Source: Squalus acanthias (lineage: Eukaryota). From it: DNA of 64,000 nt. The notes beneath the pieces were generated by a model. That model saw only the letters and a program-made list of their open reading frames with translations. It was not told the origin of the DNA and searched no databases. How positions within the stretch are numbered: the first letter of the stretch is position 1; every line of letters starts with the position of its first letter. The translations under genes were made by a program, and so were the position numbers. Location of the stretch: NCBI GenBank assembly GCA_030390025.1, contig CM059431.1:131752001-131816000 (forward strand), in the 5' to 3' direction. Positions 14,833 through 60,084 of the stretch are shown one piece after another.

Positions 14833-15059
14833 ATGAGAACCATTTTTTTCCTTTCCTCCTGGACATCAGATTCGGATGAAGACCAGCCGTGGCAGCAGCA
14901 GAACCATGAACAACAGCAGCACCAACAGCAGCAGCAACAACAGGAGCGCCAAGCTGCTGCTCACCCACCTGAAGCTGCACAGGCCAGAAGGCGCCAGCGC
15001 GTGACCACATTGCTGCCCGGGATGCAAGGGATGCACTCATGTTGGCCAGATTTGCTTAG
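14833..15059 (+). pseudogene. Harbinger transposase reduced to its N-terminal and C-terminal ends
   Basis: MRTIFFLSSWTSDSDEDQPWQQQ... is joined out of frame to DHIAARDARDALMLARFA*, homologous to HIAAQEARDGLTMARF in family A. No DDE core. Confidence 0.55.
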
Positions 15060-15319
15060 CCTGCACAATTAAAGACTTTTGCCTCGCACCTTCTTACCAG
15101 AGCATCGACAATGGACAAGAAGCTGCGGATTCCTATCACTCTGACCACCATACTGACAATTGCAAGTCGCTCTAAGCCCTCAATGTGGAAGTCCCATTTG
15201 CTAGATGACACAGGCCACAACTGCAACAGTTTGCCATCAAATCTGTTTATCATAACATTACAAGGATGGCTTGTCAAAAAACAATACAACAGAACACCCA
15301 AGTGACTACCCTTGTGACT

Positions 15320-18300
15320 ACTGTGCTTTATCTTCCTCTTACGCGTGCTCCTACGTGGTGCTTCCCCTGTGGCTTCCGCAGATGTGGAGGCCCCTTGCTC
15401 ACTTTCTTGCTGCTCCTGTCTCGACACCTTTGGTGGGCGTCCTCTGGGCTTGCGAGCCTGTGAGGGCTCGGCAACAGTCTGCTCCTCCTGCAGCTGTGCA
15501 GGGGCTGAGACGCCCATCTCAGTTGGGTGAGGACTCTGGTGGGGCTCTGACCGAGGGCTTTGCAGTGGCATGGTCATGTGAGCGCTTGGAGAGGAGCCCC
15601 CACTTCCTTGTTGTCTGCCACCAACATCCCTCTCATGGGTCAGCCCCACTTCAGAGCTAGCAAGTGGCTTGACAGCACCTTGCTGCACTTTGGGGGGGCC
15701 ATGAGGACCCGTTTCTGCACTGGAAGTCCTACTCCAGGGAACTTCCATGAAGGTCTGGTTTCTATGCTCAATAGCTGACCATCGCTCCTCAAGAGATGTC
15801 AGTCTATTCTGAACAATCACCATGTTTTCAACACTCTGGCGACTTAGCTCCTCCATGGCCATAGCCATCCTCTCCTCTACCATAGCCATCCTTTCCACGG
15901 AGGTTGCCATCCTTTCCGTGGTGATGCGTTCATGCGCCAATGCCTCCACAAAGGCTCTGCTCATGTTCGCGATGGACTCCTCCATTCGCTCCACACTCAC
16001 AGTGACCCTGGAGACAAAACCTGCCAGAGACTCCTGCACCTGTTCCTGGAGTTCCAGCACCGCTCTCCTTCTGGATGGACCTGGAGGCACAGGGTCAACA
16101 TGCAGCTGAGCCGAGCTGGCAGAGTCCTGCGCCCTCCGATGAGGACTCTCCACTGCTGTCCCTGTCTCCATCTGCTGATGCTCACTTGTGAGCTGTGATA
16201 CACCAGGTGACAACACTGCTGTATCTCGCGAAGGTCCCACTGAAGTGTGAGTGTCTGCGCTGGTGCTGGGTGCACTGAATTCTGCTGACGCTGCGTCCTC
16301 AGAGGTTGCAGCTTCCTCTGAGGAGTCTTGAGGCTCAGGCTGTTCCTCCTGGACACATAGAGATTGAGTTGACCTCCTGGGCCACTTGCATCCACACAGC
16401 TTTTGTCTGCTGGGGAGGCTTTTTCCTCCCTTAGAAATCAGCAAAGGGGGACCAAGAAATTGATAAAGAAAGGGAAAATGGAATATGAGCACAAACTAGC
16501 GAAAAATATAAAAACATATTGTAAAAACTTCTATAGGTATGTGAAAGGGAAAAGACTGGCAAAGGTAAAGGTAGGTCCTTTACAGTCAGAGACGGGAGAA
16601 TTTATAATGGGGAATGAGGAAATGGCAGAGAAATTAAATAAATACTTTGTTTCTGTTTTCATGGAGGAAGACACAAAAAACCTCCCAGAAATACGAGAAA
16701 ACCAACGGTGTGGCGAGAATGACGAACTTAAAGAAATTACTATTAGTAAAAAAACAGTACTCGCAAAATTAATGAGTCCAAAAGTTGATAAATCTCAAGG
16801 ACTGGATGACCTCCATCCTCGGGTTTTGAAAGAGGTGGCCATTGGGATAATGGATGCATTGGTTGTCATCTTCCAAAATTCGATAGATTCTGGAATGATT
16901 CCTGCAGATTGGAGGATAGCAAATGTAACCCCGCTATTTAAGAAAGGAGGGAGAGAGAAAACGGGGAACTATAGACCTGTTAGCCTCACATCAGTAGTTG
17001 GGAAAATGCTGGAATCTATTATAAAGGATGCAATAACTGGGCACTTACAAACTAATAGTAAAATAGGGCAGAGTCAACATGGATTTATGAAAGGGAAGTC
17101 CTGTTTGACAAATATATTGGAGTTCTTTGAGGATGTAACTAGTGGAGTAGACAAAGGGGAACCGGTAGATGTGGTGTATTTGGATTTTCAGAAGGCCTTC
17201 GATAAGGTCCCACACAAGAGGTTGGTGAACAAAATTAGGGCACATGGAATTGGGGGTAATATACTAGCATGGATTGAGAACTGGTTCACAGACAGAAAAC
17301 AAAGAGTCGGGATAAACGGGTCTTTTTCAGGATGGCAGGCTGTGACTAGTGGGGTACCGCAAGGATCGGTGCTTGGGCCCCAGCTATTCACAATCTATAT
17401 CAATGATTTGGATGAGGGGACTAAATGTAACATTTCCAAATTTGCTGATGACACAAAGCTAGGTGGCAGTGTCATTTGCGAAGAGGATGTGAAGAGGCTT
17501 CAAGGGGATCTCGACAGGCTCAGTGAGTAGGCGAGAACATGGCAGATAGATTATAATGTGGATAAATGTGAAGTTATCCACTTTGGATCGAAAAAACAGA
17601 AAGGCAGAGTATTTCCTAAATGGTGAAAGATTGGGGAATGCAGATGCTCAAAGGGACCTGGGTGTCCTTGTACATGAGTCACTGAAAGTGAATGTGCAGG
17701 TGCAGCAAGCCATTAGGAAGGCAAATGGTATGCTGGTCTTCATTGCAAGACCATTTGAGTACAGGAGTAAAGAAGTCTTACTCCAATTATATAGGGCCTT
17801 GGTGAGACCACACCTGGAGTACTGTATACAATTTTGGTCTCCTTCCCTAAGGAAGGATATACTTGCCATAGAGGGAGTGCAACGAAGGTTCACGAGATTG
17901 ATTCCTGGGATGGTGGGACTGTCGTATGAGAAGAGATTGAGTAAACTAGGCCTGTATTCTCTTGAATTCAGAAGAATGAGAGGGGATCTCATTGAAGCAT
18001 AAAAAATTATTACAGGGTTTGATAGGGTGGATGCTGGGAGAATGTTTCCCTTGGCTGGGGAGTCTAGAACCAGGGGCCACAGCCTCAGGATAAAGGCTAG
18101 ACCATTCAGGACTGAGATGAGAAGAAATTTCTTCACACAGAGGGTGGTGAATCTTTGGAATTCTCCACCCCAGAGGGCTGTGGAGGCTCAGTCATTGGGT
18201 ATATTCAAAACAGAAATCGATAGATTTCTGACTAGTAAGGGTATCAAGGGATATGGCGATAAGACTAGTGAGTGGAATTGAGGCAGAAGATCAGCCATGA

Positions 18301-27728: not shown

Positions 27729-28452
27729 GGCCACGATTTTGCCGGCGCTCAGCGGACCCGATTGGTGGCGGGTCAGCTGTGAAATTTAAAATGATTGACA
27801 GTGGGTCAGGAACCCGCTGTCAAAACATGCACACCTGCAATTCCCGCTGTCGGGTCTGCCAGCGCTGAGCAGACCCGACAGGCAGCGGCGGGGGACCCAA
27901 TTCAAATCACTAGTGGCTTGTTTACAGCCACTTAACAATGCTTTTGTTCCCAGCTTTTGTAATTTGACAGGTCACCCACCAGTTTCCCGCTGTGCCTAGA
28001 CCTCGTCTGTGAAGCTGAGGCGGGAGGTCACTATCCATTGTTTCAGCTGATGAGTTGACAGCTTCAAATGTCAACTCAATGCTCCCAGCTGATTGAGAAA
28101 TGTTCCCTTAACCACAAGCTTCTCTAAACTGCATTTCCACTATAGATTCAGAATGCTGCAAGTCTTTACACTGACATCGCCCTCCTCGGACCCGCCACTG
28201 ACATCGCCCTCCTCGGACCCGGTACTGACCTCGCCAGCCTCGGACCCGGTACTGACCTCGTCCTCCTCGGACCCGCCATTGACCTCGCCCTCCTCGGACC
28301 CGCCACTGACCTCGCCCTCCTCGGACCCGGTACTGACCTCGCCCGCCTCGGACCCGCCATTGACCTCGCCCTCCTCAGACCCGGTACTGACCTCGCCCGC
28401 CTCGGACCCGCCACTGACCTCGCCCGCCTCGGACCCGCCACTGACCTCGTCC
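27729..28452 (-). mobile_element. family A Harbinger element, truncated, ending in a minisatellite
   Basis: End GGCCACGATTTTGCCGGCGCTCAGCGGACCC matches 47228; 27865-28170 is the reverse complement of about 6970-7275. Confidence 0.8.
28171..28452. repeat. 27-bp GC-rich minisatellite, 10.4 copies
   Basis: Unit CTGACCTCGCCCTCCTCGGACCCGCCA with GCCA/GGTA variants; 28171-28440 is exactly 10 x 27 bp. Confidence 0.95.
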
Positions 28453-48637: not shown

Positions 48638-49260
48638 GCAGATAATTTGAATCAAGTGAATTTAGAGGAACAGGCTGTATTTCTCCTGTTGTGTGTATCT
48701 TTGTTGGTGCCTGCTTGAGCTGGGATTGGTGATATTTGGTGTTGAGGAGAATGATGCTTTTTGGGTGAGCTTCCTCTGTGAAGAGAGCAGATGGTACATT
48801 ATTATTTCATAAGCATACTTAGCTATTTGAATACCGTGTTGTTATTACATCTACTATAAAGGGCCGAATTTTGCCCTGAGCAGTGAACAAGTGGTACCAG
48901 TCATTTTTTAGACTTGTACTTGCCCATAGAGTTTCTATGGGATTTTGCACGGCAAGTTGCTGTCAATCAACTATCCAAAAATTGCAGCACCCCGTAAATT
49001 CAATGTCAAATCAGGTACAGCAAGCAAAATAAAGAGAGGGAAAGAAAGATTGGATTACGAGAGAGAGATAAAAGAGACGGAAAGAAAAGAGTAAAAATCA
49101 TTAAAAAAAAGTCTCCAACAATTATTAAAAGCTGAAGGAATGAGACTCCACACTTGTAAAAGTTCATTTTAAGTGCCAGAGTGCTTGTTTGGCACTAATT
49201 ATTACCATGCCGTTAAAAGGGTACTTAAACTGGAATGGACAAGCCCCAACTTTCTGTGGT

Positions 49261-52200
49261 CATAGTCATAGAGTCATAGAGTTATACAGCACGGATAGAG
49301 GCCCTTCGGCCCATCGTGTCCGCGCCGGCCATCAAGCCCTGTCTAATCTAATCCCATATTCCAGCATTTGGTCCGTAGCCTTGTATGCTATGGCATTTCA
49401 AGTGCTCATCCAAATGCTTCTTGAATGTTGTGAGGGTTCCTGCCTCCACAACCCTTTCAGGCAGTGAGTTCCAGACTCCAACCACCCTCTGGGTGAAAAA
49501 GTTCTTTCTCAAATCCCTTCTAAACCTCCCGCCCTTTACCTTGAATCTATGCCCCCTTGTTATAGACCCCTCTACTAAGGGAAAAAGCTCCTTAGTATCC
49601 ATCCTATCTATGCCCCTCATAATTTTGTACACCTCAATCATGTCCCCCCTCAGCCTCCTCTGCTCCAAGGAAAACAAACCCAATCTGCCCAGTCTCTCTT
49701 CATAGCTGAAGCACTCCAGCCCGGGTAACATTCTGGTGAATCTCCTCTGCACCCTCTCCAAAGCGATCACATCCTTCCTGTAGTGTGGCGACCAGAACTG
49801 CACACAGTATTCCAGATGTGGCCTAACCAGTGTTTTATACAGCTCCATCATAACCGCCTTGCTCTTATATTCTATGCCTCGGCTAATGAATGCAAGTATC
49901 CCATATGCCTTTTTTACCACCTTATCCACCTGTTCCGCCGCCTTCAGGGATCTGTGTACTTGCACACCAAGATCCCTCTGACCCTCCGTCTTGCCTAGGG
50001 TCTTACCATTCATTGTGTATTCCCTTGCCTTGTTAGTCCCTCCAAAGTGTATCACCTCGCACTTTTCCGATTAAATTCCATTTGCCACTGTTCCGCCCAT
50101 CTGACCAACCCATCTATATCGTCCTGCAGACTGAGGCTACCCTCCTCGCTATTTACCACCCTACCAATTTTTGTATCATCCGCGAACTTACTGATCATAC
50201 CTTTTACATTCATATCCAAGTCGTTAATGTAGAGCACGAACAGCAAGGGACCCAGCACCGATCCCTGTGGTACCCCACTGGCCACAGGCTTCCAGTCACA
50301 AAAACAACCTTCGACCATCACCCTCTGCCTTCTGCCACTGAGCCAGTTTTGTATCCAATGTGCCAAGGCACCCTGGATTCCATGGGCTCTTACCTTCTTG
50401 ACCAGTCTCCTGTGCGGGACTTTATCGAAGGCCTTACTGAAATCCATGTATACCACATCCACTGCGTTACCCTCATCCACACACCTAGTCACCCCCTCAA
50501 AAAATTCAATCAAATTAGTCAGACATGATCTTCCCTTGACAAAGCCATGTTGGCTAACCCTGATTAATCCTTGCCTCTCCAAGTGGAGACTGATTTTGTC
50601 CCTCAGAATTTTTTCCAATAATTTTCCTACCACTGATGTTAGGCTCACTGGCCTGTAGTTCCCCGGTTTTTCCCTACTCCCTTTCTTGAATAATGGTACT
50701 ACATTAGCGGTTCTCCAGTCCTCTGGCACATCCCCTGTGGCCAGAGAGGTTCTGAATATATGTGTTAGAGCCCCCGCAATCTCCTCCTTTGCCTCACACA
50801 GCAGCCTGGGATACATTTCGTCCAGACCTGGGGATTTATCCATTTTTAGACCTGCTAAAACCGCCAATACCTCCTCCCTCTCGATGTTAAAATGTTCGAG
50901 TATATCACAGTCCCCCTGCCCTAATTTTATGTCTGCATCGTCCTTCTCCACAGTGAAAACAGATGCAAAAAATTCATTTAGAACCCCACCTACATCTTCC
51001 GGCTCCACACACAGATTGCCACTTTTGTCCCTAATGGGCCCTATTTTTTCCCTAGTTATCCTCTTACCCTTAATATACTTATAAAACATCTTAGGATTTT
51101 CCTTTATTTTGCTCGCCAGTGTTATTTCATGGCCCCTCTTTGATCTCCTAATTTCTTTTTTAAGTATCCCCTGCACTTTTTGTACTCCTCTAGTGCTTCC
51201 TCCGTCTTTAGCATTTTGTATCTGCCAAAAGCCCTCCTTTTTTTCCTGATCCATTCTCGTATATCCCCTGACATCCAAGGTTCCCTGCGGTTTTTGGAAC
51301 CACCCTTGACCTTTACGGGAACATGCTGCCATTGTATGATCTCAATCTCCCTTCTGAAAGAATCCCATTGCTCCGATGCGGATTTTCCTACAAGCAGCTG
51401 ATCCCAGTCCCTTTTGGCCAGATCCTGCCTTATCCTATTAAAATCGGCCTTCCCCCAATTTAGAACCTTTATTTCCGGCCCATCCCTGTCCTTTTCCATG
51501 ACCACCTTAAATCTCACCGTATTATGGTCACTGTCACCAAAGTGCTTACCTACTAGCACTTCTTCCACTTGGCTGGCCACATTCCCTAGAATTAGGTCCA
51601 GTACCGCCCCCTCTCTTGTAGGACTTTCTACATGCTGGCTCAAAAAGCTCTCCTGGATGCACTTTAAGAATTTTGAACCCTCTAAGCCTTTCACACTCTG
51701 ACTATCCCAGTTAATATTGGGGAAGTTGAAATCCCCCATTATTATTACCCTATTATTTGCACACTTCTCTGAGATTTGCCTACATATCTGTTCCTCTATC
51801 TCCCCCTGACTGTTTGGGGGCCTATAGTACGCTCCCAGCAAAGTGCTTGCCCCCTTTTTGTTTTTAAGCTCCACCCATATAGCCTCATTGGAGGAACCTG
51901 CTAATATATCATCCCTCCTTATGGCAGTAATTGATTCCTTAATTAATATTGCGACACCCCCTCCTCTTATACCTCCCCCTCTGTCTCGCCTGAGGATTCT
52001 GTACCCCGGAATATTGAGCTGCCAGTCTTGCCCCTCCCTCAACCATGTCTCCGTGATAGCAACAATATCATACTCCCATGTGTTTATCAACACCTTCAGT
52101 TCATCCACCTTATTCGCTAGACTCCTTGCATTAAAATAGATGCCTTCCAGCCGTGCTCTTACATGTTTGCCCTGTCTTCCAAGCTGACTTGTTTTTTTCT

Positions 52201-52310
52201 CTATATTTGACTGTACATCACCCCCTATTGTAGCTCCACTCTGTATCCCATCCCCCTGCCAAGTTAGTTTAAACCCCCCCCCCCAACAGTGCTAGCAAAC
52301 CTCCCCGTAA
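49261..52310 (-). mobile_element. young CR1 LINE with complete ORF2 and the last ORF1 codons
   Basis: ORF1 end LTGRFASTVGGGGLN*, full APE endonuclease and RT, (ACTCTATG)n tail, GGT duplicated at the junctions. Confidence 0.95.
49348..52273 (-). pseudogene. CR1 ORF2 (APE endonuclease-reverse transcriptase), two 1-bp frameshifts
   Basis: [42 protein letters not shown]; no premature stops once the frames are joined near 51170 and 50069. Confidence 0.9.
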
Positions 52311-53226
52311 GGTGACTTTAGTCTGTATCTACATCAGTACAGGAACTTCACGTCGTTCAATATATTTGAATAGGGAGTCAGATTGAGAGATGTCATTTTC
52401 GGGAAGCTTTTGTAGGAGCAGGACATCTCGGACAGCAACTTCCAGATTTCCACGTTTAACTGCGCATGTGCAGTCGCCAGAAGTTGATGTCCAATTTGCA
52501 GATAAATAACGATGCCTCACCCTTATTTATACAGTAAAATCCGGGCCATTACATTTGTGCAGTCAATGTGTCGCATAGATTGTGTAAACGATGATCAATG
52601 TGGCATACATCAGTAGTTTTACACGTCACTCCAATCTTCATACAGTCTGTCTTCCAGGCATTCTCTCCTAAATAATTCAATGACATCTTTTATATAGTAG
52701 CCTCGGCTTTCCAGACCCATCCTACTGCTTTTCCACACACCCCCTTTTACCAGAGTGTGGGCTTTGTAGCCTAAAATGAGCCTGCCCGTATTTGGGGGAG
52801 AAATACATGCTGATGAAATTAAAATGTTTCCTGCCACTTGCTCTGGTTGAATGTTGGATGCAGGAGCCACGTGTTGAGCCCTGATGTCCAGTGTTCTAAG
52901 ATCGACAAAGAGGGCCACAATCGTCCAAGCGTTCTCAGATCATAGCCAAGCACGGGCTCCTTCAGCTGCAGCAAAAAAAATTACATTAAAAAGAATACTT
53001 TCTTCAAGCAACTTTCCGGCTGTGGGCTGCTGTACCTCAAACTCCAATCTGGCTCTGCTGGGATGCTCGCCTCCTGGTTGCAAATGACCCCTGAAAGGTC
53101 AGGGAGGCATCTCTGGGGTGAACAGAAGTCCCACCCCACCCTGTCGGAAAGCGTAGGTCAGTGAGTTATTTATGTCTGGGGGTCCACCAGTGTTTCCAAT
53201 TTAAAATAGACATGCTCATGCCTGAA

Positions 53227-55579: not shown

Positions 55580-56330
55580 CGGAATGGACAGACAATAAGC
55601 ACGCTCCATTGGAATGGGCGGGTGATCAACATGTTCCATCGGAATGGGCGGGTGATCAGTGCTCTGTCGGAATGGGTGGGTGATCAGTGCACTCTGTCGG
55701 AATGGGTGGGTGATCAGTGCTCTCTGTCGGAATGGGTGGGTGATCAGTGCTCTCTGTCGGAATGGGCGGGTGATCAGTGCTCTCTGTCGGAATGGGTGGG
55801 TGATCAGTGCACTCTGTCGGAATGGGTGGGTGATCAGTGCTCTGTCGGAATGGGTGGGTGATCAGTGCACTCTGTCGGAATGGGCGGGTGATCAGTGCTC
55901 TCTGTCGGAATGGGTGGGTGATCAGTGCACTCTGTCGGAATGGGTGGGTGATCAGTGCTCTGTCGGAATGGGTGGGTGATCAGTGCAGTCTGTCGGAATG
56001 GGCGGGTGATCAGTGCTCTCTGTCGGAATGGGTGGGTGATCAGTGCGTTCTGTCGGAATGGGCGGGTGATCAGTGCGTTCTGTCGGAATGGGCGGGTGAT
56101 CAGTGCGTTCTGTCGGAATGGGCGGGTGATCAGTGCGTTCTGTCGGAATGGGCGGGTGATCAGTGCGTTCTGTCGGAATGGGCGGGTGATCAGTGCGTTC
56201 TGTCGGAATGGGCGGGTGATCAGTGCTCTCTGTCGGAATGGGCGGGTGATCAGTGCGTTCTATCGGAATGGGCGGGTGATCAGTGCGTTCTATCGGAATG
56301 GGCGGGTGATCAGTGCGCTCCACCAGAATG
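55580..56330. repeat. 30-bp minisatellite, about 25 copies
   Basis: Unit GTCGGAATGGG(C/T)GGGTGATCAGTGCNNTCT; three 28-bp variants. Confidence 0.95.
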
Positions 56331-58445: not shown

Positions 58446-60084
58446 AAACTGTTCCCATTGGCAGAGGGGTCGAGAACCAGAGGACACAGATTTAAGGTGA
58501 TTGGCAAAAGAACCAAAGGTAACATAAGAAAAAACTTTTTTATGCAGCGAGTGGTTCGGATCTAAGATGCACTACCTGAAAGGGTGGTGGAGGCAGACTC
58601 AATCACGGCTTTCAAAAGGGTGTTGGATAAGTACCTGAAAGAGAATTTTTTATAGGGCTATGGGGAAAGGGCGGGGGAGTGGGACTAGCTGAGGTGCTCT
58701 TGCAGAGAGCCAGCACGGGCTCGAGGGGCCGAATGGCCTTCTTCTGTGCTGTAAACATTCTATGATTCTATGATCAGTGCGCTCCGTCGGAATGAGCGGG
58801 TGATCTGTGCGCTCTGTTGGAATGGTGGGCAATCAACGCGCCCCGTCGGAATGGCAGGTGATCAACGCACTCATCAGAATGGGCGACCGATCACTGCGCT
58901 CCGCCATTCGGCCCCCCAATGTCAAAATAGGCCCCACAGTTTTCTTTAATCAATAGAAAGGGAGAAATAAACAAACCCTCAATTAAAACTAATGGTACTT
59001 CTTTGTAACTGCATGATTTTTCCTTCTAATAAGGTGGCACTGATGGTGACTTCATTTCTTTCATTTCTTTTTAAGCAAAATGATTACTCTGATAGCAACT
59101 CAGTCCAGTGAGAAGACAGGCTGCAGGGAAAAGTTTGTGTGACTGCTGTTGTATAAATCTCTTAACAGAAAGACCTTAAGAACTTAATCTAGTGCTATGT
59201 GCTGTGCTCCACTACCTGATATTTCAGGAATGCTGTGGTCAGGCAGTAAGTCACATTCACCATAAGAAGCAGTTCAAAGTAAATAGACACCAGCGAAGTA
59301 CTGGCAGGCTTATATAGTGTCGATTTCAACTAAGTTCTGTGATAAATCTTGGGAACAGGAAGTTTGCATGTCTTGAGTTATAGCCATTTTCAAAAGATAC
59401 TGCCTGCTGAAAGAGATCAGATCATGACAGTGTTGTCACTGGGATTTCAGTAAAGTATAATGGCGGGTGTGTGAAATCTTTGTACTCTGTCCACTTACAC
59501 TGAAAACATAGGGTAGTAGTACAATGATAAATTATGTTCTTCCAAACTAACTCTGTAGCTGAATTTCATGTTGCATTATGCTAGGGTGAAACAGTGATGG
59601 CTACAAGTCTGTCACTGGTGATAGTGGTTTAAGTTACTTGAGTGGGTGAATTAAGAGTATCTCACAAGAAAGCTATTGGCATAATGCTGAATCCTATTGC
59701 CTTAAGTGCAACTTTTTCAATAGTGTATTGGAACCGAATGTACTAAATAGTGACAACACTGCCTGCACACAGTTCTGTTTAGATCATAAGAACTATTGAA
59801 GCTGTTTCTCTATTCCAAAAGAATTGCTGACGTGGCCAGTTTATCCATTCTTGGTGAACTAAATGACTTCCAGATATTTGGACTGATACATTAAATAATT
59901 TCTTTTCATATCTATGTCTGTAATAAAAGTTTAAGACAATGACAATCCTGAAGAAATTTAAATTAGAACATTTCTTTGTTAAGCTTTTCAGAGACATGTT
60001 AAAATCCCAACTCGATGCTGTAGGTTTGCCTTTGCATGGTTTAGGTTAATGTTTGTAATACTAAACCATAGACAGCCCTGACCA

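Follow-up and report, generated by a model that had tools for sequence, protein, structure and literature searches.

How does a ribosome reach the second open reading frame (ORF2) of a CR1 retrotransposon in which ORF2 overlaps the end of ORF1 and offers no AUG ahead of its endonuclease motif? This question is raised by a CR1-type long interspersed nuclear element (LINE) in a stretch of 64,000 nucleotides (nt) from Squalus acanthias (assembly GCA_030390025.1, contig CM059431.1, positions 131,752,001 to 131,816,000 of the forward strand), hereafter the window, whose own numbering is used throughout. An earlier note on this DNA had drawn attention to a U_UUA_AAC slippery heptamer at the ORF1/ORF2 junction, and had proposed that an ORF1-ORF2 fusion is made by programmed -1 frameshifting. 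That proposal is supported by the evidence assembled here, all of it comparative: we consider it very probable that active elements of the family make the fusion in this way. According to PMC13343379, CR1 dominates among the retrotransposons of most vertebrates, and the initiation of ORF2 in LINE RNA has been called open, with UAAUG, reinitiation and internal entry as the options (PMC3894237; papers are cited by PubMed Central (PMC) identifier). The element and its parts are as follows.

49260..52312, minus strand: CR1-type LINE copy, 5'-truncated and broken, about 3.05 kb (bounded by loose contig ends, a fall in depth and the tail as read).
52264..52311, minus strand: ORF1 remnant, the last 15 codons and stop, with an esterase-type end (by translation; the same ending occurs in named CR1 consensus rows).
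52267..52273, minus strand: slippery heptamer T_TTA_AAC in ORF1 phase, the predicted -1 shift site (from sequence and conservation).
52264..52266, minus strand: TAA stop of ORF1, immediately 3' of the heptamer (read in the sequence).
52247..52260, minus strand: G-rich tract 6 nt past the heptamer, a candidate stimulator (common to subfamilies that diverge beyond 52246).
52133..52266, minus strand: AUG-free linker in the ORF2 (-1) frame, with a single in-frame CTG at 52150 (from sequence).
51122..52291, minus strand: first piece of ORF2, a -1 frame without stops that encodes the APE endonuclease (PF03372, E 7.8e-16; PF14529).
50052..51341, minus strand: second piece of ORF2, in a different frame, reverse transcriptase (PF00078, E 2e-30).
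49348..50070, minus strand: third piece of ORF2, in the third frame, C-terminal part (by translation).
49260..49347, minus strand: short 3' untranslated region that ends in short tandem repeats, without poly(A) (read directly).

The assignment to CR1 rests on two features that are expected of a vertebrate CR1 LINE: ORF2 encodes an APE endonuclease followed by a reverse transcriptase (Pfam PF03372, PF14529, PF00078), and ACTCTATG-type repeats form the 3' tail at 49282-49260. CR1 elements are recognized by such a short-tandem-repeat 3' end, in place of poly(A). Within the CR1 group, poly(A) is unique to Zenon (PMC13343379). The nearest named proteins are from rays (62% identity), and in an endonuclease tree the copy groups with two ray proteins (support 99/96). 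The 5' edge lies at 52312, where contigs of the same family, assembled from sequencing runs, part from the window, and where summed depth in run X1 falls from 140,496 to 5,314 (about 26-fold). Upstream of this point the family contigs, which have loose ends, continue in the same frame and carry an esterase-end H-L-N-R-N-G stretch; this fixes the phase of ORF1. By eye, that stretch resembles the named CR1 consensus rows; only 15 codons of ORF1 are left in the copy itself. ORF2 is broken twice and is split over three frames, so the copy cannot be active. Since it is also 5'-truncated, with 15 ORF1 codons, our question concerns the family and not this dead copy, which is the only junction-bearing one in the 64-kb window.

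At the junction, the minus strand reads GGT TTA AAC TAA (52275-52264): the heptamer (52273-52267) is phased X_XXY_YYZ in the ORF1 frame, and the stop (52266-52264) follows it directly, just as had been reported. The -1 frame likewise proves to be open, with no stop from 52291 to 51122, through the YFNARS motif (Asn codon at 52132-52130) and the ETW motif. There are 14 ATGs between 52300 and approximately 51680, of which a single one, at 51739, is in the ORF2 frame; this is the Met of IIMGDFN that the earlier note had named as the first in ORF2, 131 codons past the YFNARS Asn and inside the endonuclease (residue 179 from the heptamer, within the Pfam endonuclease match at residues 47-250). The claim that ORF2 has no usable AUG thus stands for the window copy, and no AUG-creating variant is listed in its family, but it does not hold for all CR1 families (see below). 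Over both strands the window contains 14 occurrences of TTTAAAC, and a single heptamer is therefore no evidence on its own. Separately, GTTTAAAC at 52267-52274 is a palindrome, and the heptamer is therefore present on the plus strand too.

The G-rich tract, GGCAGGGGGATGGG, begins at 52260, 6 nt after the heptamer, where it had been placed; part of it also codes for G-D-G in the ORF2 frame. An AUG within this tract (52251, 12 nt past the stop, in good context) was considered as a start for ORF2 and rejected, being in the ORF1 frame, in which it opens 8 codons (52251-52225). This AUG is missing from some vertebrate rows.

Seven of eight sequencing runs yielded family contigs (1991, 238 and 3; 23, 22, 15 and 3964). 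Across 52263-52272 no alternative letter is listed at 1% or more in four of four runs, and across 52244-52272 none is listed at 3% or more in the three runs with contigs, of four. Several distinct continuations start at 52246-52248, and subfamilies that cannot be aligned beyond 52246 share 52246-52282; subfamilies with unalignable linkers therefore have only about 36 nt in common, and these comprise the ORF1 end, the heptamer, the stop and the G tract. None of the listed family variants, read by hand, creates an in-frame ATG. These contigs also bear on the idea that the frame is changed in the RNA, by polymerase slippage on a G run or on the T/A runs, or by editing. There is indeed a run of 11 G before the heptamer, in the ORF1 remnant, and its length varies: it exceeds by 3 nt the run in some of the family contigs, which show a 3-nt deletion. 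However, the listed length changes are mostly of 3 nt and keep the frame, relatives without the G run still keep the heptamer, and no inserted letters at the junction are listed in three runs guessed to be RNA, which span it but give no information on strand or level (contigs drop rare variants). We regard a change of frame in the RNA as the least credible of the explanations that we weighed.

A further line of evidence comes from distant relatives that were selected without reference to the motif. An alignment of the endonuclease retrieved 86 loci, 80 from metagenomes (29-43% identity; likely animal host DNA) and six from genomes, among them L081 (61%), which begins at the endonuclease, and L086, a weak bacterial match. 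There are no vertebrate junctions among these 86 loci, no motif-pattern scan of the collections having been made, and a search of viral contigs yielded no relative. The Asn codon is readable in 77 loci (nine lack it); 22 more were left out for want of an abutting ORF of at least 100 codons or an ORF2 of at least 150 codons, and 55 remain. Relative to ORF1, ORF2 is in the -1 frame in 44 of these, in the +1 frame in nine and in the same frame in two. After clustering at 70%, there are 37 lineages whose upstream ORF has at least 100 codons, and these divide 28, 8 and 1 among the -1, +1 and 0 frames; where the upstream ORF has 300 or more codons, the division is 18, 1 and 0. A canonical heptamer, correctly phased, lies in the overlap of 18 of the 28 -1 lineages, against 1.7 or 4.3 expected under two background rates, and in the two other phases the same overlaps contain 0 and 1. 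With a relaxed rule of our own, in which GGA, GGT, GTT or GAA is allowed as XXX, the count rises to 24 of 28 (5.0 or 7.7 expected). The -1 frame opens a median of 9 codons before the heptamer (about 10.5 by chance) and stays open for a median of 69 codons from the heptamer to the Asn, an open -1 stretch being part of how the sites were defined. In the endonuclease tree (L029, too short, was left out), these types of site are distributed among deep branches. Thus, the junction that the earlier note had ascribed to "this CR1 lineage" is present there, but it is not special to it.

The relatives differ in the ORF1 that precedes the site. A profile built from five Pfam-positive esterase loci matches 10 of the 86 loci, and in all ten ORF1 ends on T_TTA_AAC (seven, two of them one lineage) or T_TTT_TTA (three); the codon before the heptamer ends in T in every one, and codes variously for C, H, N, A, Y, S or R. 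Other ORF1s are PHD-bearing or related to those that are. Here, too, the overlap with ORF2 is in the -1 frame, and the site occupies one of three additional positions: within an A/S-K-N-L motif (A_AAA_AAC), beyond it (A_AAA_AAC), or close to the end (G_GAA_AAC, G_GGA_AAC, T_TTA_AAC or A_AAA_AAC).

Might these heptamers be no more than a by-product of conserved C-terminal L-N, F-L and K-N dipeptides written in A/T-rich codons, with ORF2 reached through internal entry or splicing? The K-N-L does sit in a conserved ORF1 motif, TTTAAAC is frequent in the window, and the window copy shows no stimulator. On the other hand, the same dipeptides are slippery-coded in 22 of 37 cases inside the overlaps and in 19 of 369 outside them (KN 7/110, LN 2/100, EN 6/77, FL 4/82), and the constraint extends to the third position of the codon before, which is itself variable. 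Furthermore, K-N-L is coded xCA AAA AAC in all nine lineages with a -1 frame that opens just upstream, and AAG AAC in L022 and L046, in which that frame opens later and the site lies elsewhere. The preference for the -1 phase, 28 to 8 to 1, is a further point against this reading. We consider a coding by-product very unlikely.

Another observation that bears on protein constraint was made on ORF1 proteins themselves. A profile of five esterase ORF1s matched 5996 proteins, and the best 150 of these (50% clusters; related to one another, and compared as protein only) were examined. L-N (57) or F-L (54) occurs within the last four residues of 111 of them, as against 1.9% of internal windows; these dipeptides are informative because they are read on U_UUA_AAC and U_UUU_UUA. 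The codon that precedes such a slip site must end in U, which excludes K, E, Q, M and W: one of these five residues stands directly before the terminal dipeptide in 1 of 111 proteins, before an internal L-N or F-L in 57 of 260, and one residue earlier in 47 of 111. This pattern would be hard to get from protein constraint. We also noted that the residue after a terminal F-L is V, G, A, D or E, with codons that start with G, in 43 of 50 cases versus 38% overall (P0085-P0240), which recalls the human immunodeficiency virus (HIV) site, as that is followed by G.

Vertebrate junctions were drawn from the CR1-group consensus sequences in Supplementary Table 2 of PMC13343379, each covered for its first 400 nt. 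A search of this table with the motif TTTAAACTA gave 23 matches, 22 of which are listed and were sorted by eye. Among those listed, 15 CR1-labelled rows from 10 species (alligator, crocodile, bowfin, bullfrog, elephant shark, stingray, coelacanth, sawfish, catshark and dogfish) carry TTTAAAC with TAA or TAG at the junction; the rest are one junction-like row labelled Crack and six matches elsewhere. In these rows the heptamer is constant while the letters past the stop vary. Seven rows were anchored on the endonuclease instead, six of them CR1; four show the end of ORF1, and all four have TTTAAAC, one without the stop. A search of the supplement anchored on ORF1 gave, among the matches listed, five relevant CR1 rows, all with the heptamer, which repeat the rows found by motif. 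When followed by hand, the -1 frame of the catshark 1a row runs without a stop to the endonuclease motif, and the gappy consensus of the alligator 1b row drops out of frame. As a separate observation, GGTTTAAACTA is also present in the apparent 5' untranslated region, upstream of ORF1, of SquAca_CR1-18 and SquAca_CR1-3, two dogfish CR1 families. Taking these comparisons together, conservation of the heptamer, of its phase and of the -1 overlap goes far beyond what protein constraint or chance would give. Absence of an AUG, which the earlier note had offered as a companion test, is common but not universal.

This last point bears on the possibility that ORF2 is made separately, whether by termination-reinitiation or from a non-AUG codon close to where ORF1 stops, in which case the junction would serve as a termination/reinitiation signal. 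UAAUG, with its AUG in the ORF2 frame, is present in 2 of the 15 vertebrate rows; an AUG in frame before the Asn occurs in 13 of the 28 -1 lineages and is missing from 15; and annotated ray proteins start at a Met within the linker. The CTG at 52150 is in frame, 6 codons before the Asn, and has an A at -3 (52153) in most family contigs. In addition, SART1 needs structure 3' of its stop-start (PMC5972666), so that hairpins at these junctions would also fit a separately made ORF2. Yet the window copy reads TAA CT, and the letters past the stop vary where the heptamer does not. The 13 lineages with an AUG fall below the 20.2 predicted from the Met rate, and their AUGs are scattered. Reinitiation also leaves unexplained both the swaps among X_XXY_YYZ words and those relatives in which the heptamer precedes the ORF1 stop by 16-84 codons and the -1 frame is open from the heptamer onward. 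We judge separate synthesis of ORF2 to be improbable, though less so than the two explanations considered above.

A 3' stimulator of -1 frameshifting is expected about 5-9 nt downstream of the slip site. Of ten ORF1-end sites in relatives, a set that includes L008, which was chosen by motif and not by profile, seven have a hairpin that begins 4-12 nt past the heptamer and ranks in the top 3% of control positions; these hairpins have folding energies of -11 to -13 kcal/mol and unrelated sequences. In the window copy, ViennaRNA predicts only a two-tier G-quadruplex (-8.8 versus -3.0 kcal/mol over 45 nt). The earlier note's suggestion that the G tract acts as a stimulator fares unevenly: the tract is conserved, in that 13 of the 15 vertebrate CR1 rows have at least four G in the 15 nt or so that follow the stop (by eye), but no fold beyond the predicted quadruplex was found. 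G-quadruplexes stimulate frameshifting in synthetic constructs, and their natural use was unknown in 2016 (PMC5009743).

Several of our results weigh against programmed -1 frameshifting, and they should be set beside the AUGs and ray annotations described above. No hairpin follows the site in the window copy (z +1.6; 60% of control positions are as stable), in agreement with the earlier note, which had seen no obvious stem-loop. Outside the ORF1-end set, a hairpin was found at 2 of 10 sites of the G_GAA_AAC type and at none of the 9 of the A_AAA_AAC type, and over 32 sites, of which L042 and L048 were mis-picked, the 3' fold is no better than controls (Wilcoxon p 0.30, 0.20). No long-range partner for the G tract beats shuffles, and an Rfam search of the window copy gave 0 matches. 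The -1 arrangement is lacking in 9 of 37 lineages, and 4 of the 28 that have it are without even a relaxed heptamer. Because the relatives share ancestry, their counts do not represent separate events. In runs X1 and X16, about 4% of depth has a G in place of the heptamer's first T, which adjoins the G run, and invariance of the junction is itself a soft measure, because contigs break at variable sites. Finally, the 15 vertebrate rows were chosen by motif, and are gappy consensus sequences of 400 nt only.

Bearing both sides in mind, we propose that -1 frameshifting would operate as follows in active elements. Most ribosomes would terminate at the UAA and release the ORF1 protein (ORF1p). A minority would slip, the Leu and Asn tRNAs moving back by one base from UUA and AAC to pair with UUU and AAA, and would then translate a variable linker, about 45 residues long, before entering the endonuclease and reverse transcriptase. 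Made at a few percent, the fusion would set a high ratio of ORF1p to ORF2 protein (ORF2p), as in Gag/Gag-Pol. With less assurance, we suggest that a pause might be brought about by the adjacent stop together with a 3' element, which would be a GC-rich hairpin in the distant relatives of esterase type and, in vertebrates, the conserved G tract. Where a family has UAAUG, slipping and reinitiation may both be used.

A more far-reaching hypothesis, for and against which we find the balance to be even, is that a -1 shift is the ancient and general route to ORF2 in the two-ORF CR1-type LINEs of animals. Such a route would have survived the replacement of ORF1 (esterase, PHD/RRM), its site moving among at least four ORF1 positions and five heptamers; the active enzyme would be a Gag-Pol-like fusion, and vertebrates would have swapped the hairpin for a G tract, possibly a natural G-quadruplex stimulator. 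If programmed -1 frameshifting is correct, CR1 gains the Gag-Pol logic of retroviruses and a fusion protein is predicted; the annotation of ORF2 starts and the counting of intact CR1 copies would change; the possible failure of engineered constructs with separate ORFs would be explained; and many natural frameshift signals would be supplied.

Some relatives and window features were noted along the way. In L064, L068, L073, L078, L084 and L070 a long ORF precedes ORF2 in the +1 or the same frame and no phased heptamer is present; they read as broken copies or as lineages that reach ORF2 by another route. In L057, L063 and L069, which have the -1 overlap, G GGG GAA stands where relatives carry G GAA AAC, and an AUG lies 3 codons before the Asn; a switch from slipping to reinitiation is possible. 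CR1-type endonucleases on short contigs of bacterial or archaeal assemblies (L081-L085, P0027, P0037; Aeromonas cavernicola 61%, Carnobacterium 66%) are likely contamination by animal DNA. Elsewhere in the window there are a 30-bp minisatellite of 24 copies (55611-56320) with a related short array (58771-58864), a 27-bp array of 10 copies (28169-28449), and a stop-free frame of 479 codons (15056-16495, minus strand) that is low-complexity and coiled-coil-like and adjoins another CR1 piece.

Among known elements, the closest is the canonical vertebrate CR1 with an esterase ORF1 (PMC13343379; CR1 subgroup 7 with ORF1 type IVB in PMC4120745), which has the same APE and reverse transcriptase ORF2, esterase-type end and tandem-repeat tail; the window junction matches the catshark and sawfish CR1 consensus rows nearly letter for letter. 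The words "frameshift" and "overlap" are missing from the main texts of these two papers as available, and a slippery junction is not described there; nor is CR1 frameshifting described in the available portions of PMC5006619, PMC3708506, PMC4255032, PMC11835228, PMC5972666, PMC10275272 and PMC5009743. No paper on CR1 frameshifting was found by title or start of abstract, in a search whose scope did not take in subscription papers of the 1990s. Descriptions of CR1, T1 and Q from that decade may already mention the ORF overlap. We thus found no earlier description of -1 frameshifting for CR1, of a kind already known in non-LTR (long terminal repeat) elements: a figure legend in a review (PMC5911963) states that two APE-type elements of Dictyostelium, TRE5-A and TRE3-A, depend on a -1 frameshift for their ORF2, and the mechanism is therefore not new in kind for a non-LTR element. 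TRE5-A and TRE3-A, which we compared by description only, differ from CR1 in lineage and in ORF1. HeT-A is the non-LTR case of frameshifting in PMC5009743, whose available text contains neither "CR1" nor "Dictyostelium".

SART1 with its UAAUG coupling (PMC5972666, PMC10275272) and L1 with its reinitiation (treated in PMC5972666 only, of these two, as available) face the same problem of a second ORF in a bicistronic LINE, and their stop too is close to the start region of ORF2. Both routes yield a separate ORF2p, unlike the fusion proposed here. Moreover, the window copy has TAA CT in place of the UAAUG of SART1, and, as distinct from L1, its frames overlap with no inter-ORF spacer, the first in-frame AUG coming only inside the endonuclease.

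The remaining comparison is with -1 frameshifting in viruses and LTR elements (coronavirus U_UUA_AAC, HIV U_UUU_UUA, retroviral gag-pol). Unlike those systems, the window copy has no pseudoknot or hairpin, its host element is a LINE, and no protease that might cut the fusion was seen in Pfam scans. The stop directly after the slip site recalls Rous sarcoma virus. U_UUA_AAC, A_AAA_AAC and G_GGA_AAC are among the shiftiest -1 heptamers, and U_UUU_UUA is the HIV site (PMC5009743). The CR1 junctions share with the viral ones the same heptamers, the same phase and the same logic of a structural protein joined to a polymerase, and in 7 of 10 esterase-type relatives this likeness extends to a hairpin at a fitting distance.

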